64,000 nt of DNA, from NCBI GenBank assembly GCA_963777955.1, contig CAVZSQ010000022.1:576001-640000 (forward strand), given 5' to 3'. Numbering within the stretch: position 1 is the first letter of the stretch; every line of letters begins with the position of its first letter. Under the pieces are notes generated by a model that was not told the DNA's origin, did not search any database, and saw nothing but the letters and a program-made list of their open reading frames with translations. A program made the translations under genes and the position numbers. Shown here piece after piece: positions 7,540 through 45,952 of the stretch. This DNA comes from Calditrichia bacterium. GTDB taxonomy: Bacteria > Calditrichota > Calditrichia > JAJRVZ01.

Positions 7540-7910
7540 ATCTACAAATCTATGATGCCTGCGGCATCAGGGCACCAGATTAATAAATTAAATGCCGCAA
7601 CTCAAGAGTTGCGGCTACCACCCTTTCACTCGATTCAATCCCCGCAATCTGAAGATTGCGGTTACCAGCTATCTTCTGTTCTATTAATGCTTTTTCCTAT
7701 CAATTCAAAGATTCCCGCCAACATACGATCAAATGTGCTGTGCGCTCAGCGGGAATGACCCTATATTGTTTTTTTCTCTCAGGTACTCAGGGACTCAATG
7801 GGCAGGTCGCGACCTGCCCCTACTATGTGCCTCAGTGCCTTATCTTTACCCTTTTCCTCTGCCTTACGGCAGATCTACGGCCTGGCTTACGCCATGCCTC
7901 CGACTTTATC
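7540..7910 (-). repeat. Mosaic array of REP-like repeats downstream of trxB
   Basis: GTCGGAG module (7859-7904), GGCAC 8-mers, GTAGGGGC REP (7800-7823), ATTCCC..GGGAAT element (7710-7759), two GGTA(G/A)CCGCAA palindromes (7642-7666, 7595-7619), TGATGCC..GGCATCA (7553-7569); all recur elsewhere in the window. Confidence 0.85.
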
Positions 7911-7912
7911 CT

Positions 7913-8842
7913 TTACTCTTCTAGATATCTCTCCGCATCAATGGCTGCCATACAGCCGCTGCCGGCGGCAGTGATGGCCTGCCGGTAAATCCGGTCCTGG
8001 ACATCACCGCAGGCGAATACCCCTGCAATACTGGTGCGGGTTGAGCCGGCCTGTGTTTGAATATAGCCATCCGGATCAAGCGTTAGCAGGTCCTGGAAGA
8101 TACCTGTGTTGGGAGTATGACCGATAGCCATAAAAACACCGTCTATTTTCTGTTCAGTCAAAGCGCCGGTTTTAGTGTCCTGCAACACGACTGCCTGAAC
8201 CACTTTATCACCTCTGATCTCAGTGATGGTCTTATTCAGCAGGAATTCGATTTTTTTGTTTGTTTTAGCTTTTTCGAGCATGATTTTTGAGGCGCGGAAT
8301 CCTTCGCGGCGGTGCACAATATAAACCTTGCTGGCAAATTTAGTCAGGAAGACGGCCTCTTCCATAGCTGAATCACCGCCCCCCACGATCATCACCTCTT
8401 TCTCCTTAAAAAAGAAACCATCACAGGTGGCACATGCTGAAATGCCGTAACCCATATATTTTTGTTCCGAGGGAATACCCAGCCAGCGGGCTGAGGCACC
8501 GGTGGCAATGATCACCGCATCGCTGGTGTATATCTGATCTTCGCTGGTGACAGTAAACGGCCTGTGCCGGGTAAAATCGACCGCAGTTACCAGCTCAAAC
8601 TTGCAGGTGGCGCCGAAGCGGACAGCCTGTTTACGCATATCGTCCATTAACTGCGGTCCCATGATACCGCCGGGAAATCCGGGATAATTCTCCACCTCGG
8701 TGGTGATCATAAGTTGTCCGCCCGGCTGATTTCCTTCCAGAACCAAAGGTGCCAGATTAGCCCGGGCGCTGTAGATGGCGGCAGTTAAGCCGGCTGGCCC
8801 ACTGCCGATGATTATCAGTTTAAAATGTTCACTTTTTTTCAT
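7913..8842 (-). CDS. trxB: Thioredoxin-disulfide reductase
   Basis: IIGSGPAGLTAA, CATCDG active site, GGGDSAMEEA, GDVQD..RQAITAAGSG. Confidence 0.98.
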   Translation of the reverse strand: MKKSEHFKLIIIGSGPAGLTAAIYSARANLAPLVLEGNQPGGQLMITTEVENYPGFPGGIMGPQLMDDMRKQAVRFGATCKFELVTAVDFTRHRPFTVTSEDQIYTSDAVIIATGASARWLGIPSEQKYMGYGISACATCDGFFFKEKEVMIVGGGDSAMEEAVFLTKFASKVYIVHRREGFRASKIMLEKAKTNKKIEFLLNKTITEIRGDKVVQAVVLQDTKTGALTEQKIDGVFMAIGHTPNTGIFQDLLTLDPDGYIQTQAGSTRTSIAGVFACGDVQDRIYRQAITAAGSGCMAAIDAERYLEE

Positions 8843-8948
8843 TTCCTGCTCCACTCGACATGATTAGTTATTTCCGCTATAATTTTAATTTAATAATTAT
8901 TCTCACTACAGACTAATTAGATTATTTAAATGGGATAAAGTTACATGT

Positions 8949-9032
8949 TAAAGGTTAAAGGCCAAAGGCAAAAGGATAAAGAACACGTCTATACTATGTT
9001 TTTCTCCCTTTATCCTTTTACCTTTAACCTTT
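8949..9032. repeat. Inverted pair of AAAGGNN heptamer tandem repeats
   Basis: Left TAAAGGTTAAAGGCCAAAGGCAAAAGGATAAAG, right CCCTTTATCCTTTTACCTTTAACCTTT; 25 nt of the left arm are identical at 41963. Confidence 0.8.
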
Positions 9033-9180
9033 GTCCCCTGGTCTCATTGTACTACTGAGATATTTTCAAAATCTCACCCCTATCGCTGTGCTTGTCTATG
9101 GATTTTTAGTATATTTGAGAATATAAAATACAAAGCAATCCTGCGGAATTTAATATCCTTTTATGCCGGAGAGCACATCG

Positions 9181-9663
9181 ATGGAATTAAAAATAATTAA
9201 AATTGAAAAACCGGATGAAATGAATTTTATACTGGGCCAGTCCCATTTCATTAAAACAGTGGAAGACATTCATGAGGCGATAGTGAATGTCAATCCCGGT
9301 ATTAAATTCGGCCTGGCTTTTTGTGAATCTTCGGGAAAAGCACTGGTGCGCTCCAGTGGCACTGACCGGGACTTAATCAAACTGGCAGAGCAGAATGCGC
9401 TCAAACTGAGTTGCGGACACATTTTCATCCTGTTCCTGGGTAACGCCTTTCCGCTAAATATTTTAAATACGATTAAAATGGTGCCGGAGATTGTTTCCAT
9501 TTATTGCGCCACGGCAAATGAGACTGAAGTGGTTATTGCGGAAACCGAAAGCGGCCGGGGAATACTGGGGGTAATCGATGGAATCAAAAGCCAGGGGGTG
9601 GAGCAGGAAGAGGATGTCAGGGAAAGGAAAAATCTTTTACGTAAAATCGGTTATAAATTCTGA
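9181..9663 (+). CDS. Adenosine-specific kinase family protein (DUF355)
   Basis: NFILGQSHFIKTVEDIHE, FGLAFCESSG, GRGILGVIDG, LLRKIGYK family motifs. Confidence 0.9.
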   Translation: MELKIIKIEKPDEMNFILGQSHFIKTVEDIHEAIVNVNPGIKFGLAFCESSGKALVRSSGTDRDLIKLAEQNALKLSCGHIFILFLGNAFPLNILNTIKMVPEIVSIYCATANETEVVIAETESGRGILGVIDGIKSQGVEQEEDVRERKNLLRKIGYKF

Positions 9664-9688
9664 GAAGAGTGATAGCGGGTAATACTAC

Positions 9689-10336
9689 ATGAGAAATCTG
9701 CAAGAATTATTTGATGCATACTTACGAACGGAACCGACCGCTGAAAAAATAAAATCGGCAACCTCAATGTTGATCCACATCGGCAAAGCCCTAAATGTAC
9801 CGACCCAGGAAGAGATCGATCGGGAATACTATGCCGATATCACCCGCTCCCTTGATGACTATTTTTCCAAGACACCTGCCAAGGCACGGCTGGACAAGGC
9901 TATCCTGGCGGAAATGATCAGCCGGGTGGGATTAAAACCTTCACTAAAACCGATTCTCGCAGAACTGCTCAGCGACCAGGATGAAAATGTTCGCCAGTTT
10001 ACGTTGCAGAGCCTCGAATATCATGGATGCAAAAATCCCAGGGCCATTTTACCCGTGATCGATAAATACCGTAAATCGGATGATGATGTGATGGTATCGT
10101 CTACTGCTTATCTGACTGCAAAACTGGTCTGCTCAGATTTTTCCCAACTGATGCTGGACCGGCTGGCTCGCTGGTATAAACAGGGATCACAAGTTTTTGT
10201 CACTGATGTCCTGAAACGGACAATTTATCTGCTCAACAAGGGCAATTGCGGAAACGGCAGTCTGGATCTGACTAAATTAAAAGACTGGACCCGGAAAAAT
10301 TGTCCGGAGGCAGTTAAAGTTTTTTCGCATCATTAA
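9689..10336 (+). CDS. HEAT-repeat-like hypothetical protein
   Basis: All-helical; LLSDQDENVRQ is HEAT-like. Confidence 0.55.
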   Translation: MRNLQELFDAYLRTEPTAEKIKSATSMLIHIGKALNVPTQEEIDREYYADITRSLDDYFSKTPAKARLDKAILAEMISRVGLKPSLKPILAELLSDQDENVRQFTLQSLEYHGCKNPRAILPVIDKYRKSDDDVMVSSTAYLTAKLVCSDFSQLMLDRLARWYKQGSQVFVTDVLKRTIYLLNKGNCGNGSLDLTKLKDWTRKNCPEAVKVFSHH

Positions 10337-10436
10337 TCTGGCGGCAGTGATCCGGTTTATCAGGGTTAATTAATCCTGAGTAAAAAAGGTTGTTATTATT
10401 TCTATTAACCGTTCACATTTAACTCAAGATGGCCTC

Positions 10437-11441
10437 ATGTTAAAATTTAAAATCTTCAGAATATTTTTGCTGGCCAGTCTGGGTTTACTGCTGAGCTGTG
10501 CTCCATATTCTTTGCCTGAACCAAAAGTATACTCGAACAAGGATGCCGCCCTGACTGTTTACATGCAAAGCCAGGATCTTTATCAGGCCAATGAATATGC
10601 GCAGGCATTACAACTGATCGATTCGGCACTGGCCATCAATCAGAATGTTGCTCAATTTTATCAGTTGAAAGGCGATATTCTGAGAAAATTAGCACGGTAT
10701 GATTCCGCTTTAGTGTCCTATCTGGCCGCTATCAGTCAACGATCCAACTATACGGAAGTATATATCAATATAGCGGAAATTTATCATCAGCAAAATCACT
10801 TTCATGAATCCGTCCGTTATTATCGTAAGGCACTGGCAGTCGATACAACTCTAACTCCGCTTTACCTGGAAATTGTCAATAACTATATTTCGCTGCAGGA
10901 ATGGGAAGTCGGATTAAATATGCTGGATGATTATGGCAGACTTGTACAGACACGAGGCCAGCCGTTCAATCAGGACTATTATTATTTAAAAGGTAAAATT
11001 CTGTTCAATCAAAAAAATTATCCCCAGGCTATCCGGGAACTATTGCAGTACAGGCCGGAAACGGCATCCAGCCAGGCGGTGCTGGCTCTGTTGGGCCGGA
11101 GTTATTATAATCTGGCAAATTATGAGAGCGGCATTCCCTATTTTAATAAACTGGTACGGATGAATGCGAAAAAAGGAGAATGGTACTATTACCGGGGGAT
11201 CTATTTTTTCCAGAAAAATAATCTGGCGGATGCGGAAAATCAATTTGAGGTTGCTTTAAGTTCCGACAGTACCCTGTACAATTGTCATTATTATCTGGGC
11301 AAAATATATGAATTACAGGGTGAGGTCCGCAGGGCTTTGGAAGAATTTCGTTTATACCGGGAGAGTATGCACTCGATGCAGAGCCTGGGTAGCCAGGGGG
11401 ATGAACTCCGGGAGCTTAAAAGTTATACCGAGGATCAATAA
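10437..11441 (+). CDS. Tetratricopeptide-repeat lipoprotein
   Basis: Lipobox LLSC; multiple TPR motifs (YYLKGKI, ALLGRSYY, YYLGKIY). Confidence 0.85.
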   Translation: MLKFKIFRIFLLASLGLLLSCAPYSLPEPKVYSNKDAALTVYMQSQDLYQANEYAQALQLIDSALAINQNVAQFYQLKGDILRKLARYDSALVSYLAAISQRSNYTEVYINIAEIYHQQNHFHESVRYYRKALAVDTTLTPLYLEIVNNYISLQEWEVGLNMLDDYGRLVQTRGQPFNQDYYYLKGKILFNQKNYPQAIRELLQYRPETASSQAVLALLGRSYYNLANYESGIPYFNKLVRMNAKKGEWYYYRGIYFFQKNNLADAENQFEVALSSDSTLYNCHYYLGKIYELQGEVRRALEEFRLYRESMHSMQSLGSQGDELRELKSYTEDQ

Positions 11442-11465
11442 GGATTCCGGGTAAGGCTGGAATAT

Positions 11466-11846
11466 ATGTTCCATGAAATCGATCCGGAGTTAATAAAACA
11501 ATCGAGTCCTCATTCAATAAAACGATGGTTTCGGGATGCGGAAGCGGAATGCGATTTATTTCTGTGGCAGGATGGAAAAAATAAGTTACAGCGTTTCCAA
11601 TTCAGGTATCAGGATGCCTTGATCGAATGGGATCAGCTGAAAGGAATACGCACCGGTCATATTGATGCCCTCAGCGGCTCCTTTATTCATTATCAAAGTA
11701 AATTATTCCGTTTGCATCAAAACCTGGATCTGGAAATTATTCAGGGTGTCAGACAATTGCTGGATAATAAAGAAGATGATTTACAGGACGGGATGCGTCA
11801 AATACATAAAATCCTTTATGAAATTGCTGCCCGATCCCATAAATGA
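11466..11846 (+). CDS. Hypothetical protein
   Basis: Fills the gap in a co-directional gene run; RWF...DLFLW motif; no family recognised. Confidence 0.6.
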   Translation: MFHEIDPELIKQSSPHSIKRWFRDAEAECDLFLWQDGKNKLQRFQFRYQDALIEWDQLKGIRTGHIDALSGSFIHYQSKLFRLHQNLDLEIIQGVRQLLDNKEDDLQDGMRQIHKILYEIAARSHK

Positions 11847-11868
11847 TCGCTACTTTTAGAGATAGGTT

Positions 11869-12681
11869 ATGCCGGAACTGCCTGAAGTTGAAGTGATCGT
11901 ACGCGAATTGCGTCAAAAAGTACTGAACGAAGAAATCGTGAATATCAAAGTCCACTGGCCAAAAAGTCTGGTAACGGATGGCCGGGCGCGGCGATCAGCC
12001 TGCGGTACAATCAAGGCGGTCAGGCGCTACGGAAAGTTTATTATATTTCAACTGGATCATCTCTATCTGCTGGTGCATCTGCGCATGACCGGCCGGTTGA
12101 TTGTCAGTAGTGCAGAGAGATTTGATAAAGCGCAATTGCGGGTTCATTTTAAATTCAGATCCGGCAAATCACTCTTGTTTTATGACACCCGTAAATTCGG
12201 CCGGGTATATCTGACGGCAGATGCAAATAAGTTTTTAGGGTCCCTGGGTGTTGATGCCCTCGATGCAAAGTTCGCGTTAAAGAATTTCAAAGTATTACTG
12301 AGCAATAAAACAGGTATAATAAAACCGTTCCTGCTGGATCAGCGTCAATTGGCCGGGTTGGGTAATATCTATGCTGACGAAAGTTTATTCCGGTCCGGTA
12401 TTCATCCGCAGCGGCGGATCAGCAGTCTGTCCGAAAAAGAACTGGGAAGATTATACCGGGCCATCCGCAGAATTCTGCCGGAAGCCATAAAGCATATGGG
12501 CACGACCCTGGCAGACTATAGAACAACTGACGGTGAGTCCGGCCGGAATCAAAAATATTTAAAGGTATACGGACGGGAACAGAATCCCTGTATCCGCTGT
12601 AAAAATCCTGTCGAGAAAAAATGGATCGGCGGCAGGGGTACACATTATTGTCCGGTCTGTCAGCCACTGAAAACAGCATGA
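11869..12681 (+). CDS. mutM: Formamidopyrimidine-DNA glycosylase
   Basis: N-terminal PELPEVE, HLRMTG, GLGNIYADE, C-terminal CxxC...CxxCQ zinc finger. Confidence 0.97.
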   Translation: MPELPEVEVIVRELRQKVLNEEIVNIKVHWPKSLVTDGRARRSACGTIKAVRRYGKFIIFQLDHLYLLVHLRMTGRLIVSSAERFDKAQLRVHFKFRSGKSLLFYDTRKFGRVYLTADANKFLGSLGVDALDAKFALKNFKVLLSNKTGIIKPFLLDQRQLAGLGNIYADESLFRSGIHPQRRISSLSEKELGRLYRAIRRILPEAIKHMGTTLADYRTTDGESGRNQKYLKVYGREQNPCIRCKNPVEKKWIGGRGTHYCPVCQPLKTA

Positions 12682-13493: not shown

Positions 13494-13510
13494 AACACGC
13501 AGGTCAGCTT

Positions 13511-14440: not shown

Positions 14441-14442
14441 TA

Positions 14443-15457: not shown

Positions 15458-15469
15458 ACGTGTCCGGAT

Positions 15470-17632
15470 ATGTTTGATACAATTCCATCCTTTTTACGCA
15501 CCAATATTTCTCCGTTCATTATCTTAGGCGTATTTCTGGTCGCTGCTATTTTCTCTTATTTACTTTACCGCCGCACCATACCGCCGCTGGCGAACAGTTG
15601 GCGGATAACCCTGTCCATTATTCGCGGCCTGGCTGTGGCCCTGATCCTGTTGCTGCTTTTTACGCCGCAGTTGACCCTGGTCTGGCAGCAGCGGGTCACC
15701 GATAAAATTGCCCTGGTCATCGATCGCTCCGCATCAATGGGTCTGCTGGAAAAGGGGGCCAGCCGGTTAAGCCGGGAGGGAAAAATTGGCGCAGATTTAC
15801 TGGCGGCGGTTCACGGGCCTGTTGAAGTTTCACTTTATGCTTTTAATACCGATACAGTGAGTCTGAAGAGTCCGCAGATCGATTCGGCACAGTTTGCCAC
15901 GGACATCGATGCCGCTCTAACGCATATAATTGCTAAAGAAAAAGATCTGACTGCGCTGATTCTGCTCAGTGATGGTAATTTCACCAGCGGTCGTAATCCG
16001 CTTTATTCCGATGCTTTATTGCGCTGCAGGATACATACCGTGGGTCTAGGCGATACGGTTGATATTCCCGATCTGCTGATAGCCGATGTGCAGGCAAATA
16101 AAATTGTATATCAAAATAAAATTACCCCGGTACAGGTAAATCTGATCGCACGCGGATTCACTGGTAAAGAAACGTTACTGCAGATCAAAGCAGAGGGTAA
16201 AGTTTTAGCAGCTCAGCAGGTGAAGATCAGCACTGCAGGGGGCATTATTCCGGTTTCTCTGAACATTAAACCGGAACAGGCAGGTCTGCGTCACTTTGAA
16301 ATCAGTGTCGATAAGCTGCCCGGTGAAGTTTTACTGGCTAATAACAGGCACCTGCTGGTCGTAGAGGTACTGAAATCAAAAATCAAAGCAACAATGCTGG
16401 CGTCACAACCGGATTTTGACGTCAAGTTTTTGCATCTGTTACTGGCAGCCAATCCTGATCTGGATGTAGAACTGGCAGTCCTGGATCAGGGAATCAAAAG
16501 TCCGGCCGAAGGGTTGCTGAATCGTGTTTTGGATAGTCTGGATGTACTGATTTTGCATGATTTTCCGGCATTGAGTACCAGCCGGGAAAATCTGGGTATT
16601 ATGGAAGAGTTATTAACCAGGCAGAAAGTGCCCTCGTTATTGCTATTCGGGGTTAATTCGTCGACAGTTGACTGGGATTTTATTAACCGGTTTTATTCAC
16701 TGCCGGCGCCAAAGTTTCTCAATCCGGTCTTAAAGACGCAGGTGCTGCTCACGGATTTCGGCAAAACTCTGCCGCTGTTAAATATTTTCAGCTCCGACCA
16801 GGAGAACCTGGATTTCTGGCAGAAATGTCCGCCCATTGAATATCCTTTTGAAAAAGTGGAGGCAGGTAATTCGCAGCGGATTGCTCTGGAGACAGCGGCC
16901 CAGGCCGGTAAAGAAAATATCCGGGTACCGGTACTGATAATTGAACAGAATGCCGGACGCAGGAATGCTTATTTACTTGGTTCCGGTTTCTGGCGCTGGC
17001 ATTTCATGCTGGCCGAAGACCGGGTGTTCCGGGACGGGTGGCAGAGTATTATTAAAAATATGATACGCTGGCTGAGCAGCAGCGGGGGCAGCAACAATGT
17101 ATTACTGAGCACCAATAAAAGAAGTTATCAGGTCGGTGAAACGGTACGGATCAGTACGGAGGTATATGACGGTGATTATAAGCCTGTCGATGACGGGATG
17201 GTTCAACTTAAGGTTTCGGGTCCCGCCGGTGTTTTTGAACTGGATGGAGGATTAATTACAGCGGGAACTTATGCATCCGATTTTCAACTATTGAGCGAAG
17301 GGGATTATACCATAGAGGCGCAGGCGTTCCGGCAGGGCAATGATGTGCCTCTTGGACAGACTTCGACCCGAATTGTGTGTACACCGGTCAATATCGAGTT
17401 TCTGTATACCCGTCAGGATGAACAGTTACTGCGCAAACTGGCTGACAAGAGCGGCGGCCGGTATGTCAGCGAAGATAATTACCGTGATTTATTCAGCGAA
17501 CTGAATTTTCCGGTACGCTACCAGGAAGTGACCAGGACTTTTGAGATCTGGCAGAAAGCGGCTTTGTTATTATTGATTATTTTTTTGTTGAGTATGGAGT
17601 GGTTTGTACGGAAGCGGTTGGGGTTGGCTTGA
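15470..17632 (+). CDS. vWA-domain membrane protein with C-terminal anchor
   Basis: Two N-terminal TMs; MIDAS DRSASM...LSDG; GFWRW; C-terminal EWFVRKRLGL. Confidence 0.85.
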   Translation: MFDTIPSFLRTNISPFIILGVFLVAAIFSYLLYRRTIPPLANSWRITLSIIRGLAVALILLLLFTPQLTLVWQQRVTDKIALVIDRSASMGLLEKGASRLSREGKIGADLLAAVHGPVEVSLYAFNTDTVSLKSPQIDSAQFATDIDAALTHIIAKEKDLTALILLSDGNFTSGRNPLYSDALLRCRIHTVGLGDTVDIPDLLIADVQANKIVYQNKITPVQVNLIARGFTGKETLLQIKAEGKVLAAQQVKISTAGGIIPVSLNIKPEQAGLRHFEISVDKLPGEVLLANNRHLLVVEVLKSKIKATMLASQPDFDVKFLHLLLAANPDLDVELAVLDQGIKSPAEGLLNRVLDSLDVLILHDFPALSTSRENLGIMEELLTRQKVPSLLLFGVNSSTVDWDFINRFYSLPAPKFLNPVLKTQVLLTDFGKTLPLLNIFSSDQENLDFWQKCPPIEYPFEKVEAGNSQRIALETAAQAGKENIRVPVLIIEQNAGRRNAYLLGSGFWRWHFMLAEDRVFRDGWQSIIKNMIRWLSSSGGSNNVLLSTNKRSYQVGETVRISTEVYDGDYKPVDDGMVQLKVSGPAGVFELDGGLITAGTYASDFQLLSEGDYTIEAQAFRQGNDVPLGQTSTRIVCTPVNIEFLYTRQDEQLLRKLADKSGGRYVSEDNYRDLFSELNFPVRYQEVTRTFEIWQKAALLLLIIFLLSMEWFVRKRLGLA

Positions 17633-17635: not shown

Positions 17636-17920
17636 AGGCACAAAGGCACACAGGCACAGAGTAGGGGCGCATTGAATATGCGCCCTTATACAAAATAAGA
17701 TTGTCATCCCAGGAATGTCGGAGACCTGGTGCAGACAGGTCGAAGATCTGCCGACAGGCAGGGTGGTAAGGGGGCTGTTTTAAAGGCCAAAGGGAAAAGG
17801 ATAAAGGGAAAAGGTTTGTAGGCAGCGCTTCGCAGCGCCGAAAAGATGGTAGTCGCGACCTTCAGGTTGCGCTTGATATTTAATATTTGAATGCTGGTAG
17901 CCGCAACTCTTGAGTTGCGG
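17636..17920 (+). repeat. Mosaic array of REP-like repeats downstream of the vWA gene
   Basis: GGCAC 8-mers, GTAGGGGCGCAT REP (17661-17685), GTCGGAG module (17717-17761), AAAGG heptamers, GCGCTTC..GCGCCGA (17818-17841), GGTAG palindromes (17848-17871, 17896-17920). Confidence 0.85.
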
Positions 17921-20709: not shown

Positions 20710-20911
20710 ATGCCGACTAATTTAGCTATCGATGACAAATTACTCGAAACGGCCAAGCGTATCGGTAAACATAAAACTAAAAAAGACTGTAGTGACCGAA
20801 GCTTTGATTGAATACATCCACAGAAGAGAACAATTGAAAATAATAAAGCTTTTTGGGTCAATCGACTACGAGGCTGATTACGATTACAAACGGCAAAGAA
20901 GTAAAAATTGA
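20710..20911 (+). CDS. vapB: Type II antitoxin, VapB/DUF2191 family (apparent frameshift ~20780-20786)
   Basis: Not in the ORF track. MPTNLAIDDKLLETAKRIGKHKTKK continues in another frame as TVVTEALIEYIHRREQLKIIKLFGSIDY...; TTGA overlap with the toxin. Confidence 0.85.
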
Positions 20912-21333
20912 AAGTGCTGGTCGATACCTGTATCTGGTCGTTAGCCTTGAGACGCCGCGGGCCTAAGACGGCGGTGTCCTCAACTGATCAGACAAATATT
21001 GCCGAACTCGGTAATCTGATAAAAGATGTGCGTGTGCAGTTGATCGGTCCGATCCGCCAGGAGATTCTTTCCGGTATTAAATCAAACAAGCAATTCGAAA
21101 TTCTGCGGGCCTATCTACGTTCTTTCCCGGATTATTATATACAACGTGAGGATTATGAACAGGCAGCGGATTTTTTTAATACTTGCAGAAATAGAGGCTT
21201 TTCGGGATCAAACACAGACTTTTTAATTTGTGCAATAGCCTTTAATAATAATTGGCCGATATTCACTGTGGATGAAGATTTCTCACACTTCAGTAAAGTA
21301 GTTCCGGTAAGAATCTATAAACAAAAAGAATAG
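20908..21333 (+). CDS. vapC: PIN-domain toxin VapC
   Basis: VLVDTCIWS, QEILSG, TDFLICA, TVDEDF acidic PIN residues. Confidence 0.92.
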   Translation: MKVLVDTCIWSLALRRRGPKTAVSSTDQTNIAELGNLIKDVRVQLIGPIRQEILSGIKSNKQFEILRAYLRSFPDYYIQREDYEQAADFFNTCRNRGFSGSNTDFLICAIAFNNNWPIFTVDEDFSHFSKVVPVRIYKQKE

Positions 21334-25507: not shown

Positions 25508-25549
25508 ATTAGTAATGAAATAATAGAAGTATTTTGGTTATATTTTATT

Positions 25550-25649
25550 AACGCAAAGGACGCAAAGGTAAACGCAAAGAGCGCAAAGTATATAAAATAA
25601 TGATTTTCTTTGCGCCCTCTGCGTTTATTACCTTAGCGTCCTTTGCGTT
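25550..25649. repeat. Inverted pair of CGCAAAG tandem repeats
   Basis: Left AACGCAAAGGACGCAAAGGTAAACGCAAAGAGCGCAAAG; right arm is a near reverse complement; 19-nt AT-rich centre. Confidence 0.85.
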
Positions 25650-25806
25650 TTGTTTTTTTATCTATCCATTCGCTCCATATCCCTCTGTTCTTCAAGCCTT
25701 CAATTTCCACTCCTATCCAGTGTTCAAACCGTATTGGCATTATAATTGAACAGTACCAGTATTGGTTTTATAAATAATGCCGGTTAACAGGCAGGAGAGA
25801 GACAAA

Positions 25807-27525
25807 ATGAAGCCGTTGTATATGATAATCATTTATATTTTCACACATTCCCTCGCTTTTGCCCAGATTACTTTTTCTGAAATCATGTTCGATGTAGCCA
25901 CCGATGAAAACCATGATGAATTCGTGGAGATATATAATCTTTCCGATCTTGATTCAATTGATATCTCCGGCTGGCAGTTCAGCGACAGCAGCGACAGCGA
26001 TCTGATCCTTCCTTGCAGTAATGGCACAAAAATTCCCCCGCATTCATTTGCAGTTATCCTGGATGGAAGTTATTTCAATAATTCCAGCAGCTATGATGAC
26101 ATTATTCCTGACAGCGTCATGCTGCTGACCATCGATAATAGTACTTTTGGCAGCAGTGGCTTGTCCAATTCGAAGGGGGAATTACTTTCACTGACCGATG
26201 CCGCGGGCAATGTGCTGACCAGCTGTCGCTACAGCCCCGGTAATAAACCGGGTTATTCAGATGAAAAGGTATTGCTGGAGGGGGAAAATAGTACAGATAA
26301 CTGGCAGGATAGCCAGGTACCCGGCGGTACGCCGGGTTTCCATAATTCGGTATCACCCTGGTCGATAGATCTGGGTTTGCAGGAAGGTTCGCTAAAGATT
26401 CCGGACCTGTTGTTCGAAGAGGATTCAGTCACGATGGAAATTGAGATCTTTAACCTGGGACTGAAACCGGTGGAGGATACGATTAGTCGTATATCTTTTT
26501 ATCGATCAAAATGAAAATAATCTGCGTGATGCAGCTGATCGGCAGATTACTGAAAAAGTATTTTTTTATTCATCGATTAATAGTTCTACTGTACAGGTTA
26601 ACCTGGTACAATTTACCGGCCGGACAGCAGCACCTGGGAGTCGAAATCGCTTATGCAGCAGATGAAAATAAGAGTAATAATCTGCTGTTCCGTGATCTTG
26701 TAGTTTTAATGCAGCAGAATGTGCTGCACTTAAATGAAATCAAATTTCTGACCTTCGACGGGGAAGCAGAGTGGATTGAAATAATTAATACCGGACTAAA
26801 TCCAGTCTCGGTTGAATGGGTGGTGCCTGGCTGATCAACAGGATACCATCGAAATTGATTCTCTGGTCAATTTATATCCGCAGCAAATGAAAGTGCTGTG
26901 TTCCGGATTTATTTCAGACAGGTATGATCTGGCTGATAGCCTGGTAATTGTTTTACCGAAATTTCTGAATTTGAATAATGATGAGGATGATCTGACTCTA
27001 CTGGAACCGGGCGGGAGGTGGCTGGAACGGTTGCATTACGAGGCAGAGTGGCTGCAGGATGAAGATCTGCGGCGGCAGGTGAGTTTAGAGCGAATCAATC
27101 CTTTATTATCTGAAAATAAACAGGAGAACTGGGGGCCCTCGGTTGCGGTCGAGGGTGCAACTCCGGCGGCAATCAATAGTATTTATTCGCCGGTAAAACG
27201 CGGCCGGCAGCAGATTACAGTATCTCCCAATCCATTTTCTCCGGACGAGGATGGTTATCAGGATGTGGCCATAATCAGCGGGGAACTACCCGAAACCAGC
27301 GCCCGGATCCGGGTACAGATTTTTGATCTGAAAGGCCGACTGATCCGGACCCTGCAGGAAAATCGTTTCAGCGGACGCTATTTCAACCTGGCCTGGGATG
27401 GCAAAGACGGTTCAGGCCGCCTGGCCCGGATCGGCATCTATATAATTTTCATGCAGATGTTTAATGAAGGAGCCGGCGTGCTGCGGGAAATGAAGACAAC
27501 TGTAGTGTTAGCGCATAAGTTATAG
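25807..27525 (+). CDS. Secreted lamin-tail-domain protein with FlgD-Ig/sorting C-terminus (several frameshifts)
   Basis: FSEIMFD..EFVEIYN..ISGWQF..GTPG; LNEI..EWIEIIN..GWCLAD..ATPA; PNPFSPDEDG, WDGKD..GIYI across three ORFs. Confidence 0.85.
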
Positions 27526-28064
27526 GGACAAAGGTCGGAGGTCAGAGACCGGAGACCTGCCGTAAGGCAGGGACAAAGGGACAAAGGGACAAAGGGACAA
27601 AGGGACAAAGAGGTGACAAAGGGACAAAGGGACAAAGGGACAAATAAAAGATTATATCAAAAGTAATTAATAATCAAGAACGATTTTGTAGGGGCGCATG
27701 GCCATGCGCCCATGATGCCGGAGGCATCAAATATTTGTAGTAATGGAGAAATCTCCAATAATATGGAGACCCCGGAGGGGTCGAACAAGTTTGAGAATGG
27801 CTTACAAGATTTATCCCGGTATTAAAAATCAGTAACCCCAATCTTTAGATTGCGTGAATCGCATAACAATCGAAGCCGGTAGCCGCATTCTTCAGATTGC
27901 GTGGTTTTTAATGTCAGCAGAATATCGGTAGCCGCAACTCTTGAGTTGCGGGTTATTTTTACATTACTGGCAGATGTATATCCGCCTTTTAGTTTCTTGC
28001 TCACTAGCCACTATCTTCAGATAGTGGAGTATGGAATCACCTAATATCCTATGGCTTTAGCCAT
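27525..28064 (+). repeat. Mosaic array of REP-like repeats downstream of the LTD gene
   Basis: GTCGGAG module, octamers, GTAGGGGCGCATG REP (27688-27711), TGATGCC..GGCATCA, GACCCC..GGGGTC, three GTA(G/A)CC palindromes (27831, 27878, 27927), ACTAGCCACTAT element (28003-28064). Confidence 0.85.
27570..27644 (+). repeat. GGGACAAA octamer tandem repeat
   Basis: 5 perfect copies, one degenerate unit, 3 perfect copies; one further copy overlaps the stop codon at 27525. Confidence 0.95.
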
Positions 28065-28141: not shown

Positions 28142-29773
28142 ATGAGTAATGCCTACTTTAAAGTGCCCGTTCCTTACAATGAACCGATTAAATCTTATCT
28201 CCCGGGATCTCCGGAGCGAACCGAATTAAAAAAGAAATTGACGAAAATGCAGGCCGAGACTGTTGAAATTCCGCTGATCATCGGCGGGCAGGAGGTCAGG
28301 AGCGGTAATACCGCCGAAATCCGCGCACCGCACAATCATAAAATAAAACTGGGTATCTATCATAAGGCCGCTGACAAAGAAGTTAAAATGGCTGTCGCTG
28401 CAGCGTTAAGTGCCCGCAAGGCCTGGTCAGAAATGCCCTGGGAACAGCGTGTGGCTATTTTCCTGAAAGCAGCCGATCTGCTGGCGGGAGTCCTGGCGCA
28501 GTACTCTGAATGCCGCGACCATGCTGGGTCAGTCGAAAACCGTGTACCAGGCGGAAATTGATTCGGCCGCGGAATTGATCGATTTCTGGCGTTATAATTC
28601 ATACTATCTGACCCAACTGATCAGCGACCAACCTTACTCGCCGCCGGGGACCTGGAATCGCCTGGAATACAGGGCCCTGGAAGGATTTATTTTCGCCGTT
28701 ACTCCATTCAATTTCACTTCCATTGCCGGCAATCTGCCAACGGCACCAGCCATGGCAGGAAATGTCGTATTGTGGAAGCCGGCCTCCAGTGCAGTTTATT
28801 CGGCGTACTTCTTAATGAAATTATGGGCTGAAGCAGGTTTGCCTGCCGGGGTGATCAATTTCATACCCGGCGCAGGGGGACAGGTTGGCAACCCGGTGCT
28901 GAGCAGCCCCGATCTGGCCGGGATTCATTTTACCGGTTCCACAGAGGTTTTTCAGAATATGTGGAAAACTGTCGGAAATAATATATCCAAAATGAAATAC
29001 TATCCCCGTATTGTCGGTGAAACCGGTGGCAAGGATTTCATTTTCGCCCATCCCTCGGCTGACCTGCCGGCACTGGTGGTGGCCGTATTGCGCGGAGCCT
29101 TCGAGTATCAGGGACAAAAATGCTCAGCAGCTTCCCGCGCATACATTCCCCAGTCCCTATGGCCGCAGTTTAAAAAAATGTATGTAGCCGAAGTAAAGAA
29201 AATTAAAATGGGGGATATCAGCGATTTTAAAAATTTCATGGGCGCGGTCATCGACCGGGAGCTTATGACAGTATAAAAGCCTATATAGATTTTGCCAGGA
29301 ACTCCCGGGAAGCAGAAATTATTACCGGCGGTAAATGCGCTGCCAGCAAAGGATTTTTCATCGAACCGACCACGATTGTCACCACCAATCCGAAATTCAA
29401 AACCATGCAGGAGGAGATCTTCGGGCCGGTTATGACCATCTATGTGTATGAAGATGATAAACTGCCGGAAACGATTAAACTGTGTGATGAAACCTCCCCG
29501 TATGCTTTAACCGGAGCGATATTTGCCCAGGATCGTGCGGCGATTAATATGTTATCGAATGCGCTGCGCGATGCTGCCGGTAATTTTTATATCAATGATA
29601 AACCGACCGGTGCGGTGGTCGGGCAGCAACCCTTCGGCGGTGCCCGCGCTTCCGGCACTAATGACAAAGCCGGTAGCGCCATGAACATCCTGCGCTGGAT
29701 GTCGGCCCGGGCCATCAAGGAAAATATGGTCCCGCCCCACGATTGGACGTATCCGTTTATGAAATCACAATAA
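28142..29773 (+). CDS. pruA: L-glutamate gamma-semialdehyde (P5C) dehydrogenase (frameshifts ~28490 and ~29260)
   Basis: NEPIKSYLPGSPER, TPFNFTSIAGNL, FTGST, GETGGKDF, FEYQGQKCSA, EEIFGP, QQPFGGARASGTNDKAG. Confidence 0.95.
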
Positions 29774-37718: not shown

Positions 37719-37726
37719 GAGCATAT

Positions 37727-41000: not shown

Positions 41001-41011
41001 CAGAAATAAAA

Positions 41012-41953
41012 GTGTTACAGCAATTGGATAAAAACGCCTTTATATTTCCCGGACAGGGATCGCAGTATGTCGGTATGGGTCAGGATCTGTTTGAAAATTT
41101 CGCCGAAGCAAAACAGATTTTTGGACGGGCCAATGAGATAATGGGTTTTGATTTAGCCGGTATATGTTTCCATGGTCCTGAGCAAGAGTTAAAACAGACC
41201 CGCATTACGCAGCCGGCAATATTTGTACACAGTGTAGCCGTGCTGGAATTACTGAAGAAGAAAGGTCTGCGACGACTTCGGCCGGCAACCGCGGCCGGTC
41301 ATAGTCTGGGCGAGTACAGTGCACTGGTGGCAGCGGGCGCTTTAAGTTTTGAGCATGGCCTGCGGCTGGTAAAAATCCGCGGGGAACTGATGCAGCAGGT
41401 TTCACAAAAAAAGGCCGGCACAATGGCCGCAATTATCGGTCTGGACTTCGACCAGGTCCGGCAGGTGTGTGAACAGGTAAAAGACAGCGGTGTGGTTTGC
41501 ACTGCCAATTTAAACTCGCCCGGACAGGTGGTGATATCGGGAGAGATCCCGGCGGTCAAAGCAGCCATGGCTGAAGCTAAAAAAAGCGGTGCTAAAAAGG
41601 TAATGGAACTGGTGGTCAGCGGCGCTTTTCATTCACCCTTAATGGAGGAGGCCCAGCAGGGCTTAGCGGCGGCTTTGCGGGAAATTGAAATTAAAGACGC
41701 CGGGATTCCCGTGTATACCAATGTACAGGCTGTGGCCTGCCAGGATAAAGATCAGCTCCGGGATCTGTTATACAAACAACTGACTCATCCTGTACGCTGG
41801 GTGGAGATAATACAGAATATGGTTGCCGATGGTTTTACGCAGTTTTATGAACTCGGCCCGGGTAAAGTTCTGAGCGGTTTAGTGAAACGGATTGACGGTT
41901 CGGTAAACTGTCAGGCAGTTGGGGATGTGAGTAGTCTTGCGGCGCTGGGATAA
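41012..41953 (+). CDS. fabD: Malonyl-CoA:ACP transacylase
   Basis: FPGQGSQ, TQPAI, GHSLGEY, VSGAFHS, ELGPG. Confidence 0.97.
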   Translation: MLQQLDKNAFIFPGQGSQYVGMGQDLFENFAEAKQIFGRANEIMGFDLAGICFHGPEQELKQTRITQPAIFVHSVAVLELLKKKGLRRLRPATAAGHSLGEYSALVAAGALSFEHGLRLVKIRGELMQQVSQKKAGTMAAIIGLDFDQVRQVCEQVKDSGVVCTANLNSPGQVVISGEIPAVKAAMAEAKKSGAKKVMELVVSGAFHSPLMEEAQQGLAAALREIEIKDAGIPVYTNVQAVACQDKDQLRDLLYKQLTHPVRWVEIIQNMVADGFTQFYELGPGKVLSGLVKRIDGSVNCQAVGDVSSLAALG

Positions 41954-41962
41954 TATTGAGGC

Positions 41963-42129
41963 TAAAGGTTAAAGGCCAAAGGCAAAAAGGTAAAAAGATT
42001 AAAAGGTCAAAAGTAAAAAAAATGTGGGAGGCGCTTCCTAGCGCCGATTAGTTACTGACCCACCCCAAACCCCTCCCTTTCAGTCCGGCGGTTGCCGGAC
42101 TGAAAGGGAGGGGCAGGGGGAGGGTTATT
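41963..42129 (+). repeat. Repeat mosaic after fabD
   Basis: AAAGG heptamers, GGAGGCGCTTCCTAGCGCCGA (42024-42047), 77-bp CCCCTCCC hairpin element (42053-42129). Confidence 0.85.
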
Positions 42130-42152
42130 TAAGGGTAAAGGATTAACGAAAA

Positions 42153-42893
42153 ATGGAACTCAAAGACAAAATCGCCATCGTTACCGGCTCAGCCCGTGGA
42201 ATTGGCCGGATGATTGCACTGGAATTGGCCGCAGCGGGAGCCAATCTGGTGGTATCCGACGTCCTGGAGCAGGATGGCCAGAATGTCGTAGCAGAGATCA
42301 AAAAACTGGGACGTGAGGCAATCTGGTTCAAGGCTGATGTGAGCAAGAGTGCCGAAGCAGCTCAACTGATTCAAGCTGCGCTGGATAAATTTACGCGCAT
42401 CGATATTCTGGTCAATAATGCCGGCATCACCCGTGACAATCTGCTTTTACGGATGAGCGAGGCGGAATGGGATAGTGTCATTGCGGTTAATCTTAAAGGT
42501 ACGTATAATTGCATCCAGGCTGCCACTAAAACTTTAATGAAACAGCGTACGGGCAAGATTATCAATATTGCCTCGGTAGTCGGGCAGATCGGCAATGCCG
42601 GTCAGGCCAATTACGCTGCTTCCAAGGCGGGAATAATCGGCCTGACCAAAGCAGTTGCAAAAGAATTAGCAGCTCGTAATATATGTGTTAATGCTATCGC
42701 ACCGGGATTTATTCAGACCGCCATGACTGATAATTTACCCGAGAAAGCAAAAGAGGCCTTGCAGAGCGTAATCCCGTTAGCCCGGTTGGGTCAGCCGGAA
42801 GATGTGGCCAGGGCCGTGCGGTTTTTAAGCAGCGCTGCCGCGAACTATATCACCGGCCAGGTGTTGAATGTGGATGGCGGGATGGTCATGTAA
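42153..42893 (+). CDS. fabG: 3-oxoacyl-ACP reductase
   Basis: TGSARGIG, NNAGITRD, NYAASKAG, VDGGM. Confidence 0.97.
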   Translation: MELKDKIAIVTGSARGIGRMIALELAAAGANLVVSDVLEQDGQNVVAEIKKLGREAIWFKADVSKSAEAAQLIQAALDKFTRIDILVNNAGITRDNLLLRMSEAEWDSVIAVNLKGTYNCIQAATKTLMKQRTGKIINIASVVGQIGNAGQANYAASKAGIIGLTKAVAKELAARNICVNAIAPGFIQTAMTDNLPEKAKEALQSVIPLARLGQPEDVARAVRFLSSAAANYITGQVLNVDGGMVM

Positions 42894-42895
42894 AG

Positions 42896-43261
42896 TACTG
42901 ACCCACCCCTAACCCCTCCCTTTCAGTCCGGCGGTTGCCGGACTGAAAGGGAGGGGCAGGGGGAGGGTTATTGAAGGGAAAAAGGCAAAGAAGTTTATAG
43001 GTCAAATGATTTCTGGAGGCGCTTCCTGCGCCGATGGAACACTCAACGCCCGGCAGACTAGCCACTATATTTCAGATAGTGGTTGAGAAAATAAATGTAA
43101 ATACTGTGGCTTTGGCCACAAAAAGAGCAAGAGATTTATAATAGGATAATGAAATTATCTGACCCTCCCTATGTCCCCTCCCTTTGCCCCTCGACTTCGC
43201 TCGGGGACCAGGGAGGGGATAAGGGGTGGGTTACTAAGGTACTCAGGAACTAAGGGACTAA
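42896..43261 (+). repeat. Repeat mosaic after fabG
   Basis: 77-bp hairpin element (42896-42972; 76/77 identical to 42053), GGAGGCGCTTCC palindrome (43015), ACTAGCCACTAT element (43057-43120), reversed CCCCTCCC element (43160-43233), GGNACTNA octamers. Confidence 0.85.
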
Positions 43262-43315
43262 TAATATTAAACAATACAAACGAAAAATCTATTTTACTAA
43301 ACAGGAGGATTAAAG

Positions 43316-43552
43316 ATGGATATTCAAGCTAAAGTTAAAGAGATCATTGTAGAGCAACTAGGCGTTGATGAAGCACAGGTTAAGCCGGAAGCGTCATTTA
43401 TCGATGATCTGGGCGCCGATTCTCTGGATACAGTTGAACTGGTCATGGCCTTCGAAGAGAAATTCGACATTGAAATTCCCGATGAAGATGCCGAAAAAAT
43501 GCGTACCGTCGGTGATGCTATGGCCTATCTGAGCACCAAGCTCGCCAAGTAA
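43316..43552 (+). CDS. acpP: Acyl carrier protein
   Basis: [14 protein letters not shown] phosphopantetheine site; AGGAGG RBS. Confidence 0.98.
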
Positions 43553-43592
43553 ATCTTGTTGAATCTTAAAACCATAGAATGATTGAGTAATT

Positions 43593-44843
43593 ATGCGACG
43601 AAGAGTTGTTATTACCGGTATGGGCAGTCTCACGCCGCTGGGACTGAATACCAGTGAATTCTGGCAGGGACTGCTGGCAGGGAAGAGCGGAGTTGGTCCG
43701 ATTACCTATTTTGATGTCAGTGAATATCCAACCAGGATTGCCGCGCAGGTACAGGGATTGAAACCGGAAGAGCACTTTGATAAAAAAGAAGTGCGGCGGC
43801 TGGATTCATTTGCCCAGTACGCCATTATTGCAGCACGTGAAGCGATTAAACAATCGGGCCTGGACCTGGAAAAAATAGATAAGAACCGTGTAGGGGTCAT
43901 TGTCGGATCGGGTATCGGCGGCATCCTGTCTTTTGAGCAGGAGGTACGCAAACTGGTTGCACAGGGACCCAAACGCGTCAGTCCCTTTTTCATTCCGCAA
44001 ATGATCTCTAACATTGCCGCCGGGCATATTTCGATGGAATTTGGATTTAAGGGACCCAATTATGCCACCGTTTCTGCCTGTGCCACCTCGGGTCATGCCG
44101 TTGGCGTAGCGCTGATGGCGATTCAGCGGGGGGATACGGAGATTGTGATCAGCGGTGGATCTGAGGCTGCCATTACCCCCATGGGTATCAGCGGATTCAC
44201 TTCCATGAAAGCAATGTCCACCCGCAATGATGATCCGGCCAGAGCCAGCCGGCCGTTTGATCTGAACCGTGACGGTTTTGTAATGGGCGAAGGCGCCGGG
44301 ATTCTGGTCCTGGAGGAACATGATCACGCTTTAAGCCGCGGCGCAAAAATAATTGCCGAGTTAAGCGGTGTCGGCTTTACCGCTGATGCCTATCATTTAA
44401 CCGCGCCGGCGCCGGGTGGTGAAGGTGCAGCCAGGGCTATGCAGCAGTGTCTTAATGATGGTGCATTATCGGTTGAGGATATCGATTATATAAACGCGCA
44501 TGGCACCAGTACCCCTCATAACGATAAGACTGAAACAGCGGCCATTAAAACTGTTTTTGGTGAACGTGCCTATGAGCTTTCAATCAGCTCGACTAAATCG
44601 ATGACCGGGCACATGTTGGGCGCTGCCGGAGCGGTCGAATTGATTGTTTCGGCGCTGGCGGTCAGCGAAAATAAAATCCCGCCGACCATCAATTATGAAA
44701 CACCCGATCCGGAGTGTGATCTCGATTATACCCCGAATGAAGCAATTGAGCGGGAAGTGCGGGCAGCCATCAGCAACACTTTTGGTTTTGGCGGACACAA
44801 TGCCTGCATCAGTCTTAAAAAGTATGTAAACGGTAAGGGCTGA
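43593..44843 (+). CDS. fabF: Beta-ketoacyl-ACP synthase II
   Basis: RRVVITG, SACATS, GFVMGEGAG, INAHGTST, KSMTGHMLGAAG, FGFGGHN. Confidence 0.97.
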   Translation: MRRRVVITGMGSLTPLGLNTSEFWQGLLAGKSGVGPITYFDVSEYPTRIAAQVQGLKPEEHFDKKEVRRLDSFAQYAIIAAREAIKQSGLDLEKIDKNRVGVIVGSGIGGILSFEQEVRKLVAQGPKRVSPFFIPQMISNIAAGHISMEFGFKGPNYATVSACATSGHAVGVALMAIQRGDTEIVISGGSEAAITPMGISGFTSMKAMSTRNDDPARASRPFDLNRDGFVMGEGAGILVLEEHDHALSRGAKIIAELSGVGFTADAYHLTAPAPGGEGAARAMQQCLNDGALSVEDIDYINAHGTSTPHNDKTETAAIKTVFGERAYELSISSTKSMTGHMLGAAGAVELIVSALAVSENKIPPTINYETPDPECDLDYTPNEAIEREVRAAISNTFGFGGHNACISLKKYVNGKG

Positions 44844-44870
44844 TCATTCTGATCGGCCCGCTGGCCTGAA

Positions 44871-45674
44871 ATGTTAAAACAAAGCATCCAATTTTTATCC
44901 AGGTTATTCAAAAAAAAGGACCAGCCGCGGGAAATCAATTTTTCCGCCATTGAACGAATCCTGAATTATTCTTTTGTAAACAAATCGTTACTGACGCAGT
45001 CCTTTAAACACCGTTCTTATCTTTCGATCACCCGGGAATCTTCGCTGGAATCCAACGAACGCCTGGAATTCCTGGGGGATGCCATTCTAGAGTTGGTGGT
45101 AACAGAATTTTTATACCGCAAATTCCCGGAGCATGATGAAGGGTATTTATCAAAGTTGAAATCAGTGCTGGTATCCCGGAAGGTGCTGGCCGAGCTGGTG
45201 ATCCGCAAAGGATTGGGCAAGCATTTATTGCTGGATCGCGGCGAAGAAAAAACGGGGGGTAAAACACGCAGTTCCAATCTGGCCAATCTCTATGAAGCGG
45301 TTATCGGCGCCGTATATCTGGACAGCGGCCTGGAACCTGCGGCCCGCTTTATTGAGCAGACGCTTTTAACGCGCTACCATGCTTTAATTAAAGATGAAAA
45401 GTTTATCAATTATAAAAGCATACTGCTGGAATATGTACAGGGGAATAAATCTGGCGAAGGGGGTGAAACGGGTGAAGCGGGCGAAGCGGGCGAAGCCCGT
45501 CTGCCCGTTTATGAACTGTTGCAGCAGACCGGACCCGATCATGACCGGCAATTTGTCATGCAGGTCAGCATTCCCGGGGGTCTGAGTGCGCTGGGGGAAG
45601 GGAAGAGCAAGAAAGTAGCCGAGCAGCGCTGTGCGCAGAATTTGTTGAACAAGATTGCGCCGGAGTTGTTATAA
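44871..45674 (+). CDS. rnc: Ribonuclease III
   Basis: NERLEFLGDAIL, EAVIGAVYLD, dsRBD GPDH...SKKVAEQ. Confidence 0.97.
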   Translation: MLKQSIQFLSRLFKKKDQPREINFSAIERILNYSFVNKSLLTQSFKHRSYLSITRESSLESNERLEFLGDAILELVVTEFLYRKFPEHDEGYLSKLKSVLVSRKVLAELVIRKGLGKHLLLDRGEEKTGGKTRSSNLANLYEAVIGAVYLDSGLEPAARFIEQTLLTRYHALIKDEKFINYKSILLEYVQGNKSGEGGETGEAGEAGEARLPVYELLQQTGPDHDRQFVMQVSIPGGLSALGEGKSKKVAEQRCAQNLLNKIAPELL

Positions 45675-45675
45675 G

Positions 45676-45952
45676 TACTGACCCACCCCAAACCCCTCCC
45701 TTTCAGCCCAAGGGCTGAAAGGGAGGGGCCGGGGGAGGGTTAGTTCATTCCCGCTGAGCGAATGGCACGCTTGATCATATGTAGGCGGGAATCTATAATC
45801 GAAAAGGGTAATGGATAAAGGGTAAAGTAAAAAGGTATGCAGGTGTTTTATACTTAGTGCCAGAGTGCCTCAGTGCCTAAGTGCCTTTTTTTTATCTCTA
45901 CCTGACGGTAGATCTCCGACTTGTCTGCGCCAGGTCTCCGACCTTTACCCTT
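45676..45952. repeat. Head-to-head repeat mosaics between convergent genes
   Basis: Plus-oriented: CCCCTCCC element (45676-45742), ATTCCC..GGGAAT element (45745-45793), heptamers. Minus-oriented: GGCAC octamers (45857-45886), GTCGGAG module (45898-45942). Confidence 0.85.

Follow-up and report, generated by a model that had tools for sequence, protein, structure and literature searches.

Mosaic intergenic repeat stacks in a Calditrichia bacterium and their likeness to the arms of small gene cassettes

The six arrays and the genes that their arms match

In the Calditrichia bacterium of assembly GCA_963777955.1 (here G000; 4.24 Mb, 92% complete) we looked at six arrays of short repeat modules that lie between the genes of one 64,000-nucleotide stretch, contig C22:576001-640000, which we call the window. 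An initial annotation had described them as mosaics of about ten unrelated families. All six arrays and every module it named are present, but the ten families collapse to about five gene-linked systems and a set of loop inserts, because most modules are matched by the arms found around five or six unrelated small genes, either of this genome or of its relatives. The genes of the window were named by NCBIfam, and the names trxB, fabD, fabG, acpP, fabF and rnc were confirmed. The first module begins 3-11 nt past the stop codons at 17632, 41953, 42893 and 45674 and about 5-10 nt beyond the minus-strand trxB stop at 7913, and at 27525 a module overlaps the stop itself. The right end of the rnc array (45952) is 46 nt from the convergent stop at 45998. 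When folded as DNA, five of the six arrays have z-scores of -4.3 to -8.4 and the remaining one -1.4.

The array behind trxB lies on the minus strand. Directly behind the stop there is a 7-mer arm (7840-7910) that is broken by a GTCGGAG insert (7857-7904), followed by a two-arm 8-mer relic of the four-helix-bundle type (7781-7840), whose arms at 7781-7794 and 7827-7840 enclose a GTAGGGGC repetitive extragenic palindrome (REP) at 7798-7823. The region 7779-7798, which had been listed as an exception in orientation, is actually the partner of the arm at 7827-7840. Next come a long-loop GTCATTCCCGC hairpin (7709-7759), a CGTC/SRM-like variant, two GTAGCCGC REP-type hairpins (7596-7666), whose partner is like a REP-associated tyrosine transposase (RAYT, or TnpA-REP), and a TGATGCC hairpin (7553-7569), which by indirect evidence is likely the arm of an IS200-like Y1 gene. 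On the plus strand, the second array consists of an 8-mer arm followed immediately by a GTAGGGGC REP (17636-17686, the REP at 17661-17686), a truncated GTCATCCC hairpin with a GTCGGAG insert (17702-17763) and, at 17782-17919, a 7-mer arm, a GCGCTTC REP-type hairpin (17818-17841) and two GTAGCCGC hairpins. The third array, also on the plus strand, starts with an 8-mer array (27523-27645) that supplies a TAG stop and holds a GTCGGAG module (about 27534-27572); it goes on with a GTAGGGGC REP fused to a TGATGCC hairpin and then a companion GACCCC hairpin (27688-27782), and with three GTAGCCGC-type hairpins and a TAGCCACTAT hairpin (27830-28027, the last at 28003-28027) that matches the arm of a Y1 gene at locus L166 of a relative, G006.

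The two stacks of the fab operon are on the plus strand as well. Between fabD and fabG (41964-42146) there are a 7-mer arm, a GCGCTTC hairpin (42024-42047), a DUF559 arm (42056-42127) with a CCGGC insert in its loop and another 7-mer. The fabG-acpP stack (42899-43258) contains a DUF559 arm (42899-42970), a 7-mer, GCGCTTC (43012-43035) and TAGCCACTAT (43057-43082) hairpins, a second DUF559 arm (43160-43233), the loop of which holds a TCGA module of the GIY-YIG type (43187-43209), and an 8-mer arm. The rnc stack (45679-45952), to which no strand is assigned, begins with a DUF559 arm (45679-45742), a long GTCATTCCCGC-type hairpin (45744-45794) and a 7-mer arm (45803-45835); two reversed modules complete it, the 8-mer arm at 45856-45886 and GTCGGAG at about 45897-45945.

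Repeat families were discovered de novo in the 2808 intergenic regions of G000 against a Markov-3 control; 55 were found, of which 40 were kept and grouped into 24 superfamilies, whilst tRNA, CRISPR and 13 chance-like short seeds were dropped. The arms were then surveyed in ten genomes of the family, with up to 30 best loci for each search and loci with short flanks dropped. In G000 itself, PF05635 (four-helix-bundle) genes, such as that at C22:468629-469030, have on both sides inverted arrays of 7- or 8-mers that begin at the flanking stops; CCCCTCCC hairpins enclose DUF559 genes (one at C19:17832-18206), the GxxExxY gene (C22:188584-188985) has its own arms, and Y1 and RAYT-like genes stand between hairpins. 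The 95th percentile of ordinary genes, used as the threshold for inverted arms, was exceeded by 18 of 20 DUF559 genes, 23 of 26 four-helix-bundle genes and 25 of 26 GxxExxY genes, and also by Y1 (16/28), RAYT (10/24) and GIY-YIG genes (6/18), as compared with 14 of 300 ordinary genes and none of 8 controls (UvrC and long GIY-YIG). Each of these gene families is found between inverted arms, and the arms are seen without a gene as well. A period of 7 or 8 precedes 24 of 26 four-helix-bundle genes; the G000 profiles of the DUF559 type occur on both sides of 15 of 24 DUF559 genes, and the G000 8-mer profiles flank 7 of 30 four-helix-bundle genes.

The link of GTAG-led modules to RAYT had been suggested in the initial annotation, and it holds: GTAGGGGC is a double-foot REP that adjoins 4 of 27 RAYT loci and a RAYT remnant at C13:438185 of G000. 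GTAGCCGC flanks a RAYT-like gene (L012/L180) that scores under the NF047646 cut-off. Both carry the extragenic 5' GT(A/G)G tag at the hairpin foot, and the tag of GCGCTTC is degenerate. TAGCCACTAT ends an IS200-like Y1 gene at L166, and the Y1 gene at L011 is flanked by TCCCGCAGG-type hairpins. Taken together, the GTAG and TAGCCAC hairpins match the arms of RAYT and IS200-like Y1 genes. The companion hairpin of TGATGCC was found at 8 of 31 Y1 flanks, 1 of 27 RAYT flanks and none in the other four families. As for GIY-YIG, the TCGA module flanks such genes at L138 and L116, and the profile used here matches genes that are flanked by NTS-like repeats (E 1e-28 to 1e-33). In other phyla, (C/T)GTCA-tagged hairpins occur upstream of 45 and downstream of 40 of 80 small GIY-YIG genes, on both sides in 24, against 2 and 1 in far controls. 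Of 120 long-pattern loci, 5 flank such a gene, all with the tag pointing inward, but these are tandem canonical copies. The published degenerate SRM pattern does not occur in the window; the intergenic DNA of G000 has 14 matches to it and the Markov control 3. A scan of G000 for enclosed open reading frames (ORFs) returned known cassette genes and ordinary genes between neighbouring stacks, and no new partner family. TGATGCC is confined to G000 and its sister species G001 among 86 genomes, with no viral hits; three viral hits of GCGCTTC were considered as a clue to its partner and proved to be unrelated and without a cassette gene.

Some further properties of the partner genes may be mentioned. 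A scan with the sigma-54 consensus found a sigma-54-like motif within 200 nt upstream, on the sense strand only, in 45 of 152 cassette-gene loci (a few counted under both Y1 and RAYT) from all six families (L011-L198), for example at C22:468600 of G000; rpoN is present, and the motif precedes 32 of 1501 ordinary genes in G000, 13 of 413 in G001 and 2 of 78 GIY-YIG loci of other phyla. At one shared site, related RAYT-like genes have different arms in the two species, of the CCACCTCCGAGG type at L189 (G000, C22:372029-372391) versus the CACCTTAAGGG type at L174 (G001), and copies of either arm type are scattered over G000. Another subfamily of small GIY-YIG genes (L115, L118, L120, L122, L127, L129-L132, L135, L136 and L144) lies right behind tRNA genes, with decayed tRNA copies after it that carry small hairpin inserts. 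At about 20 places in G006 there are short copies that match the GxxExxY profile over its final third alone, mostly interrupted by a stop codon, and these are probably a gene-tail-plus-arm element that was amplified there.

Nesting, turnover and growth of the stacks

One of the questions that these arrays raise is how modules of unrelated systems come to be stacked together. The modules are found inside each other: REPs and DUF559 arms within 8-mer pairs, CCGGC and TCGA modules in the loops of DUF559 arms, and GTCGGAG in the loops of GTCATCCCGG hairpins, where 11 of the 29 short-or-filled hairpins of G000 carry the insert (7 further matches of the regular expression are of other kinds). They also keep a usual order from the stop, which is 8-mer, GTAGGGGC, reversed 8-mer, GTCATCCC, 7-mer and then GCGCTTC, GTAGCCGC or TGATGCC. 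With G000 and G001 pooled, 132 of 172 ordered pairs agree with this order, which is better than all of 1000 shuffles (maximum 0.72). In 12 of 15 cases a spacer of 17-19 nt separates the 8-mer arm from GTCATCCCGG. Two non-orthologous sites of G001, one of which is a 1-bp gap in G000, repeat the REP/8-mer junction seen at position 7790 of the window, and the junction of a DUF559 arm with an 8-mer is present at 7 sites of G000. Nesting, a favoured order and junctions that recur at unrelated loci together suggest that blocks are copied between loci. When the multi-module gaps were aligned all against all, a block was shared by 63 of 85; this figure was not used as evidence because the alignments run across adjacent modules and some of the loci are duplicated contigs. 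Near-duplicate gene regions do exist across contigs C2/C26 and C12/C13 of G000, which suggests strain mixing in the assembly and can double-count a few repeats.

Comparison with G001 (120 stretches covering 1.54 of about 3.9 Mb, with a median gene identity of 84% to G000) gave 1038 pairs of orthologous gaps, of which 64 are filled in both species, 32 only in G000 and 21 only in G001. Among the 64 doubly filled gaps the set of families is identical in 18, and 13 have no family in common. Five of the six window sites have an orthologue in G001, and all five hold there a different stack from the same kit; the site at 27525 is not covered. Gene-bearing and relic alleles face each other in both directions at C22:188473, C22:468478, C3:231654 and C19:414621, and at C17:274869 a hairpin loop is filled in G000 and plain in G001 with matching flanks. 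The comparison of orthologous sites proposed in the initial annotation shows gene-bearing, gene-less and empty alleles exchanged at one site between the sister species. Where G001 alone has a family, G000 already has another one in 76 of 98 cases, whereas just 96 of the 1038 gaps are occupied. In other genera the fabD-fabG gap is at most 67 bp long (four genera) and the fabG-acpP gap is short, 76-126 bp, in three and holds other arm types in two. No fixed flank consensus was found for 60 DUF559-arm matches, and no clean excision in the contigs of four sequencing runs, which hold short pieces from relatives; no RNA run was listed as a holder, and the best share of any run was 0.14.

The footprints had been thought to be mostly single arms. 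Many of these 'single arms' are relics of two arms, as in the 8-mer pair behind trxB; other examples are a GxxExxY-type relic at 25549-25650 (no strand assigned), which lies outside the six arrays, and a 7-mer relic at 8950-9032 (likewise without strand) in a divergent gap without a stop codon, where G001 holds an 8-mer pair.

On balance we favour the explanation that the stacks are piles of gene-less arms, which grew by arms landing in or beside old ones and by the copying of multi-arm blocks between loci. As a first step, an arm-gene-arm cassette would enter a gap and later drop its gene, leaving a two-arm relic or a single arm. In single-stranded DNA the cassette nucleases may then nick their cognate hairpins, or arms may recombine, and a repair that uses another arm copy as template would import the loop content and the neighbours of that copy; shared order and junctions would follow from such repair. 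Nicking in vitro is published for RAYT and SsnA only. For DUF559 and GxxExxY it is putative. To our knowledge the four-helix bundle has no enzymatic activity. The stop-side bias would come largely from selection, because promoters and ribosome-binding sites must stay intact and because a stop can be supplied by the many arms whose first letters are TAA, TAG or TGA. Polarity is probably in part geometric, since the stop-nearer arm of an inverted pair always reads in the direction of the gene.

Several observations weigh against this explanation. Neither movement nor cleavage was observed in this analysis, so that movement is wholly inferred, and no consistent target-site duplication was found in 14 filled/short pairs (84% identity). 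Within G000 alone the order is consistent in 79 of 107 pairs and is not above every shuffle (maximum 0.776), the fixed junctions could also be due to insertion of one family at a set position within another, and co-occupancy with G001 can be inheritance followed by loss. The assignment of partners has gaps too: no partner gene was found for GTCGGAG or for GCGCTTC (0 of 58 Y1/RAYT loci, with the pattern only in G000 and G001 among 86 genomes), TGATGCC is likely tied to Y1 through its companion hairpin alone, and no Ssn-type gene was found in G000, which is 92% complete, though about 90 gaps hold its hairpins. The genes of G000 were called with our own hexamer-based caller, which missed some AT-rich genes.

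A wider and more tentative hypothesis, to which we give less credence, is that at least five unrelated one-gene selfish families (HUH, GIY-YIG, Vsr-like DUF559, PD-(D/E)XK GxxExxY and four-helix bundle) converged on one design, inverted arms with a stop codon at their beginning and in many cases a sigma-54-like promoter. They would act as a guild, homing by nick-and-copy into the relics of one another and carrying mixed multi-arm trains between loci.

Stop codons, polarity and other explanations

The kit families match 520 of the 2808 intergenic regions. In another explanation, unrelated elements share a target at gene 3' ends, for example single-stranded DNA behind a terminating ribosome or polymerase, and are inserted there as successive single arms that follow transcription. 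We consider this unlikely, although part of the data fits it. As the initial annotation had stated, arrays do start near stops: in 119 of 365 same-direction gaps the first module is at most 10 nt from the stop, against 38 expected from a sliding null, or 56 when the 20 nt before the start are protected, and 62 module hits overlap a stop codon. Among gaps of at least 100 bp, convergent ones (69/138, 50%) are occupied twice as often as others. GTCGGAG follows the gene and not the GC skew in 7 of 8 discordant cases, which favours transcription over replication as the source of its polarity (in the other families the discordant cases are too few), and two other families are polarised 15:0 and 13:0. 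Yet long divergent gaps are filled about like same-direction gaps (72/297, 24%, versus 339/1257, 27%), so the stop codon is favoured but dispensable; many units have two arms; and the host genes that neighbour cassettes in other genera show no significant excess of occupied sites in G000 (7/34 versus 12.8%, p=0.19).

Polarity points the same way. It had been claimed that most modules read in the direction of the upstream gene, and the bias is real, with 168 of 252 gaps when the first oriented module is counted (p=1.3e-7), but at 168:84 it is far from near-absolute. It depends on the family: copies with and against the upstream gene number 23:5 for GTCGGAG, 15:5 for GTCATCCCGG, 45:25 for the 8-mer, 7:1 for GCGCTTC, 28:17 for the 7-mer, 10:4 for GTAGGGGC and 10:6 for GTAGCCGC, and polarity is absent for the long ATTCCC module (9:6) and the DUF559 arm (12:9). 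AAAGG 7-mers that read with the gene are nearer to the stop than reversed copies (medians 79 versus 265 nt), as is expected for the two arms of one inverted pair, and AATT 7-mers show the opposite trend (96 nt versus 24 nt). With polarity dependent on the family, stops dispensable and no common host genes found across genera, a shared biochemical target at 3' ends is not shown. Unrelated micro-elements do use the same sites, favour the stop side, target each other and turn over, as had been proposed; with the occupied divergent gaps and the result for host genes across genera, the idea of one integration-hotspot unit is not supported. Selection and accretion on older relics explain much of the pattern.

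It is even less probable that the stacks are a neutral graveyard, in which elements insert independently and at random, purifying selection leaves them in long tolerant gaps, and long gaps simply take more hits. The avoidance of starts agrees with it, since only 10 of 365 same-direction gaps have a module no more than 10 nt from the next start, and 2 of 72 divergent gaps have one within 20 nt of a start, and published REPs, in the available part of the source, are likewise mostly downstream of genes and between convergent genes (PMC3733652). But 94 gaps hold at least three superfamilies, where length-weighted nulls have a mean of 36-46 and a maximum of 63, and 15 hold at least five against a null maximum of 7, counts that are somewhat inflated by overlapping 7/8-mer profiles and loop inserts. 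The nesting in loops, the recurrent junctions and the fixed spacers require interaction between families, and the junction data already strain this explanation. Gaps that were ancestrally short, such as fabD-fabG, have also turned into stacks.

The least probable explanation, that hairpin piles are kept by the host as terminators or mRNA stabilisers in 3' untranslated regions (UTRs), has on its side the stop-proximal, partly polarised and strongly folding stacks and reported effects of REPs on 3' UTRs (bioRxiv 10.64898/2026.03.23.713779, as far as its available text goes), but the content is replaced between sister species at one site and absent in other genera, and the fab operon and divergent gaps contain stacks as well. 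The stacks may still have side effects on expression.

Outside these stacks, families 8, 15, 20 and 44 are strongly polarised direct repeats between small unrelated genes (C17:106-113 kb, C27:95-99 kb and C6:1-2 kb), in regions resembling cassette arrays. In the window there is also an AATT-type 7-mer array at 48656-48680, within a surface-polysaccharide region (47553-63500; wecB, export protein, glycosyltransferases). An L-glutamate gamma-semialdehyde dehydrogenase gene at 28142-29773 is broken into ORFs 28142-28561, 28521-29276 and probably 29405-29773, and is either a pseudogene or an assembly error. The VapC-family toxin gene of a type II toxin-antitoxin pair is located at 20908-21333.

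Relation to known repeat systems

Should the proteins of the DUF559, GxxExxY and four-helix-bundle families work on their arms in the way of RAYT and SsnA, a role would be found for three abundant families of unknown function, and site-specific single-strand nucleases of new kinds may come to light. The mosaic becomes a list of parts that can be tested, as each arm names a candidate enzyme and its substrate, and nesting and shared junctions are a direct way into the growth of bacterial intergenic mosaics. The guild hypothesis, if true, would give a common role to the orphan DUF559, GxxExxY and PF05635 families and an origin to the 7/8-mer tandem repeats. In the literature searched, which did not cover subscription journals, no paper linked DUF559, GxxExxY or PF05635 to flanking repeats, and none dealt jointly with at least two of the following: four helix bundle, GxxExxY, DUF559, REP-associated tyrosine transposase and heptamer repeats.

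Heptamer arrays as such are well known. STRR heptamers are tandem repeats, and the PF05635 gene family is known from ORF-bearing intervening sequences of 23S rRNA. The TAACTGA heptamer repeats are oriented intergenic 7-mer arrays able to supply stops, and the available text gives no mechanism for them and contains neither 'four helix' nor 'S23' (PMC4679880). The arrays described here differ in being the inverted arms of PF05635 genes between protein genes.

For IS200/IS605 TnpA the likeness is in the hairpins that flank Y1 genes (TAGCCACTAT at L166, the TCCCGCAGG type at L011), and the difference is that gene-less copies far outnumber the gene here. Two-arm relics (25549-25650, 8950-9032 and the G001 allele at C22:468478) resemble miniature inverted-repeat transposable elements in having terminal inverted repeats around non-coding DNA; a known transposase as partner holds only for the Y1 modules, since PF05635, PF04480 and PF13366 genes are not transposases.

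Ssn GIY-YIG nucleases are described with NTS/SRM repeats, and CGTC-tagged REPs and dRS3 are described as well, in the parts of the sources at hand (PMC11893778, PMC3733652). The (C/T)GTCA-tagged hairpins that bracket small GIY-YIG genes in relatives and other phyla belong to the published Ssn/SRM system, but the window copies have loops of 30-40 nt or loop inserts and do not fit the published SRM pattern. In REPs, bacterial interspersed mosaic elements (BIMEs) and REPINs with RAYT, GTAG-tagged hairpins flank RAYT genes and scatter downstream of genes, according to the available portions of PMC3116915, PMC6006769 and PMC3733652. The GTAG hairpins here include the 'double foot' type of subclass 2.4, and the sources, so far as available, read REP singlets as remnants of doublets. 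In contrast to these systems, each family has a low copy number (tens), with the copies interleaved or nested with arms of non-HUH genes, and regular arrays of a single family do not occur. BIMEs in particular have regularly spaced REPs of one family in alternating orientation with conserved linkers, whereas the present stacks mix unrelated families in irregular numbers.

Neisserial intergenic mosaic elements (NIMEs) are intergenic mosaics of several repeat families that vary among relatives, and their exchange by recombination has been proposed. They are mentioned in the available parts of PMC3184786 and PMC3733652. What sets the present mosaics apart is that most modules can be assigned to distinct, autonomous-looking gene cassettes, with tandem 7/8-mer arms as the scaffold. 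RAYT/REP and Ssn/SRM are thus already published, which tempers the value of these results, and multi-family mosaics are known as BIME and NIME (PMC3733652, PMC6006769, PMC3116915 and PMC3184786, in their available parts). What is added here is the joint assignment of arms in one genome, the survey of filled and empty sites, the limits on polarity and targeting, and the ordered, nested blocks.

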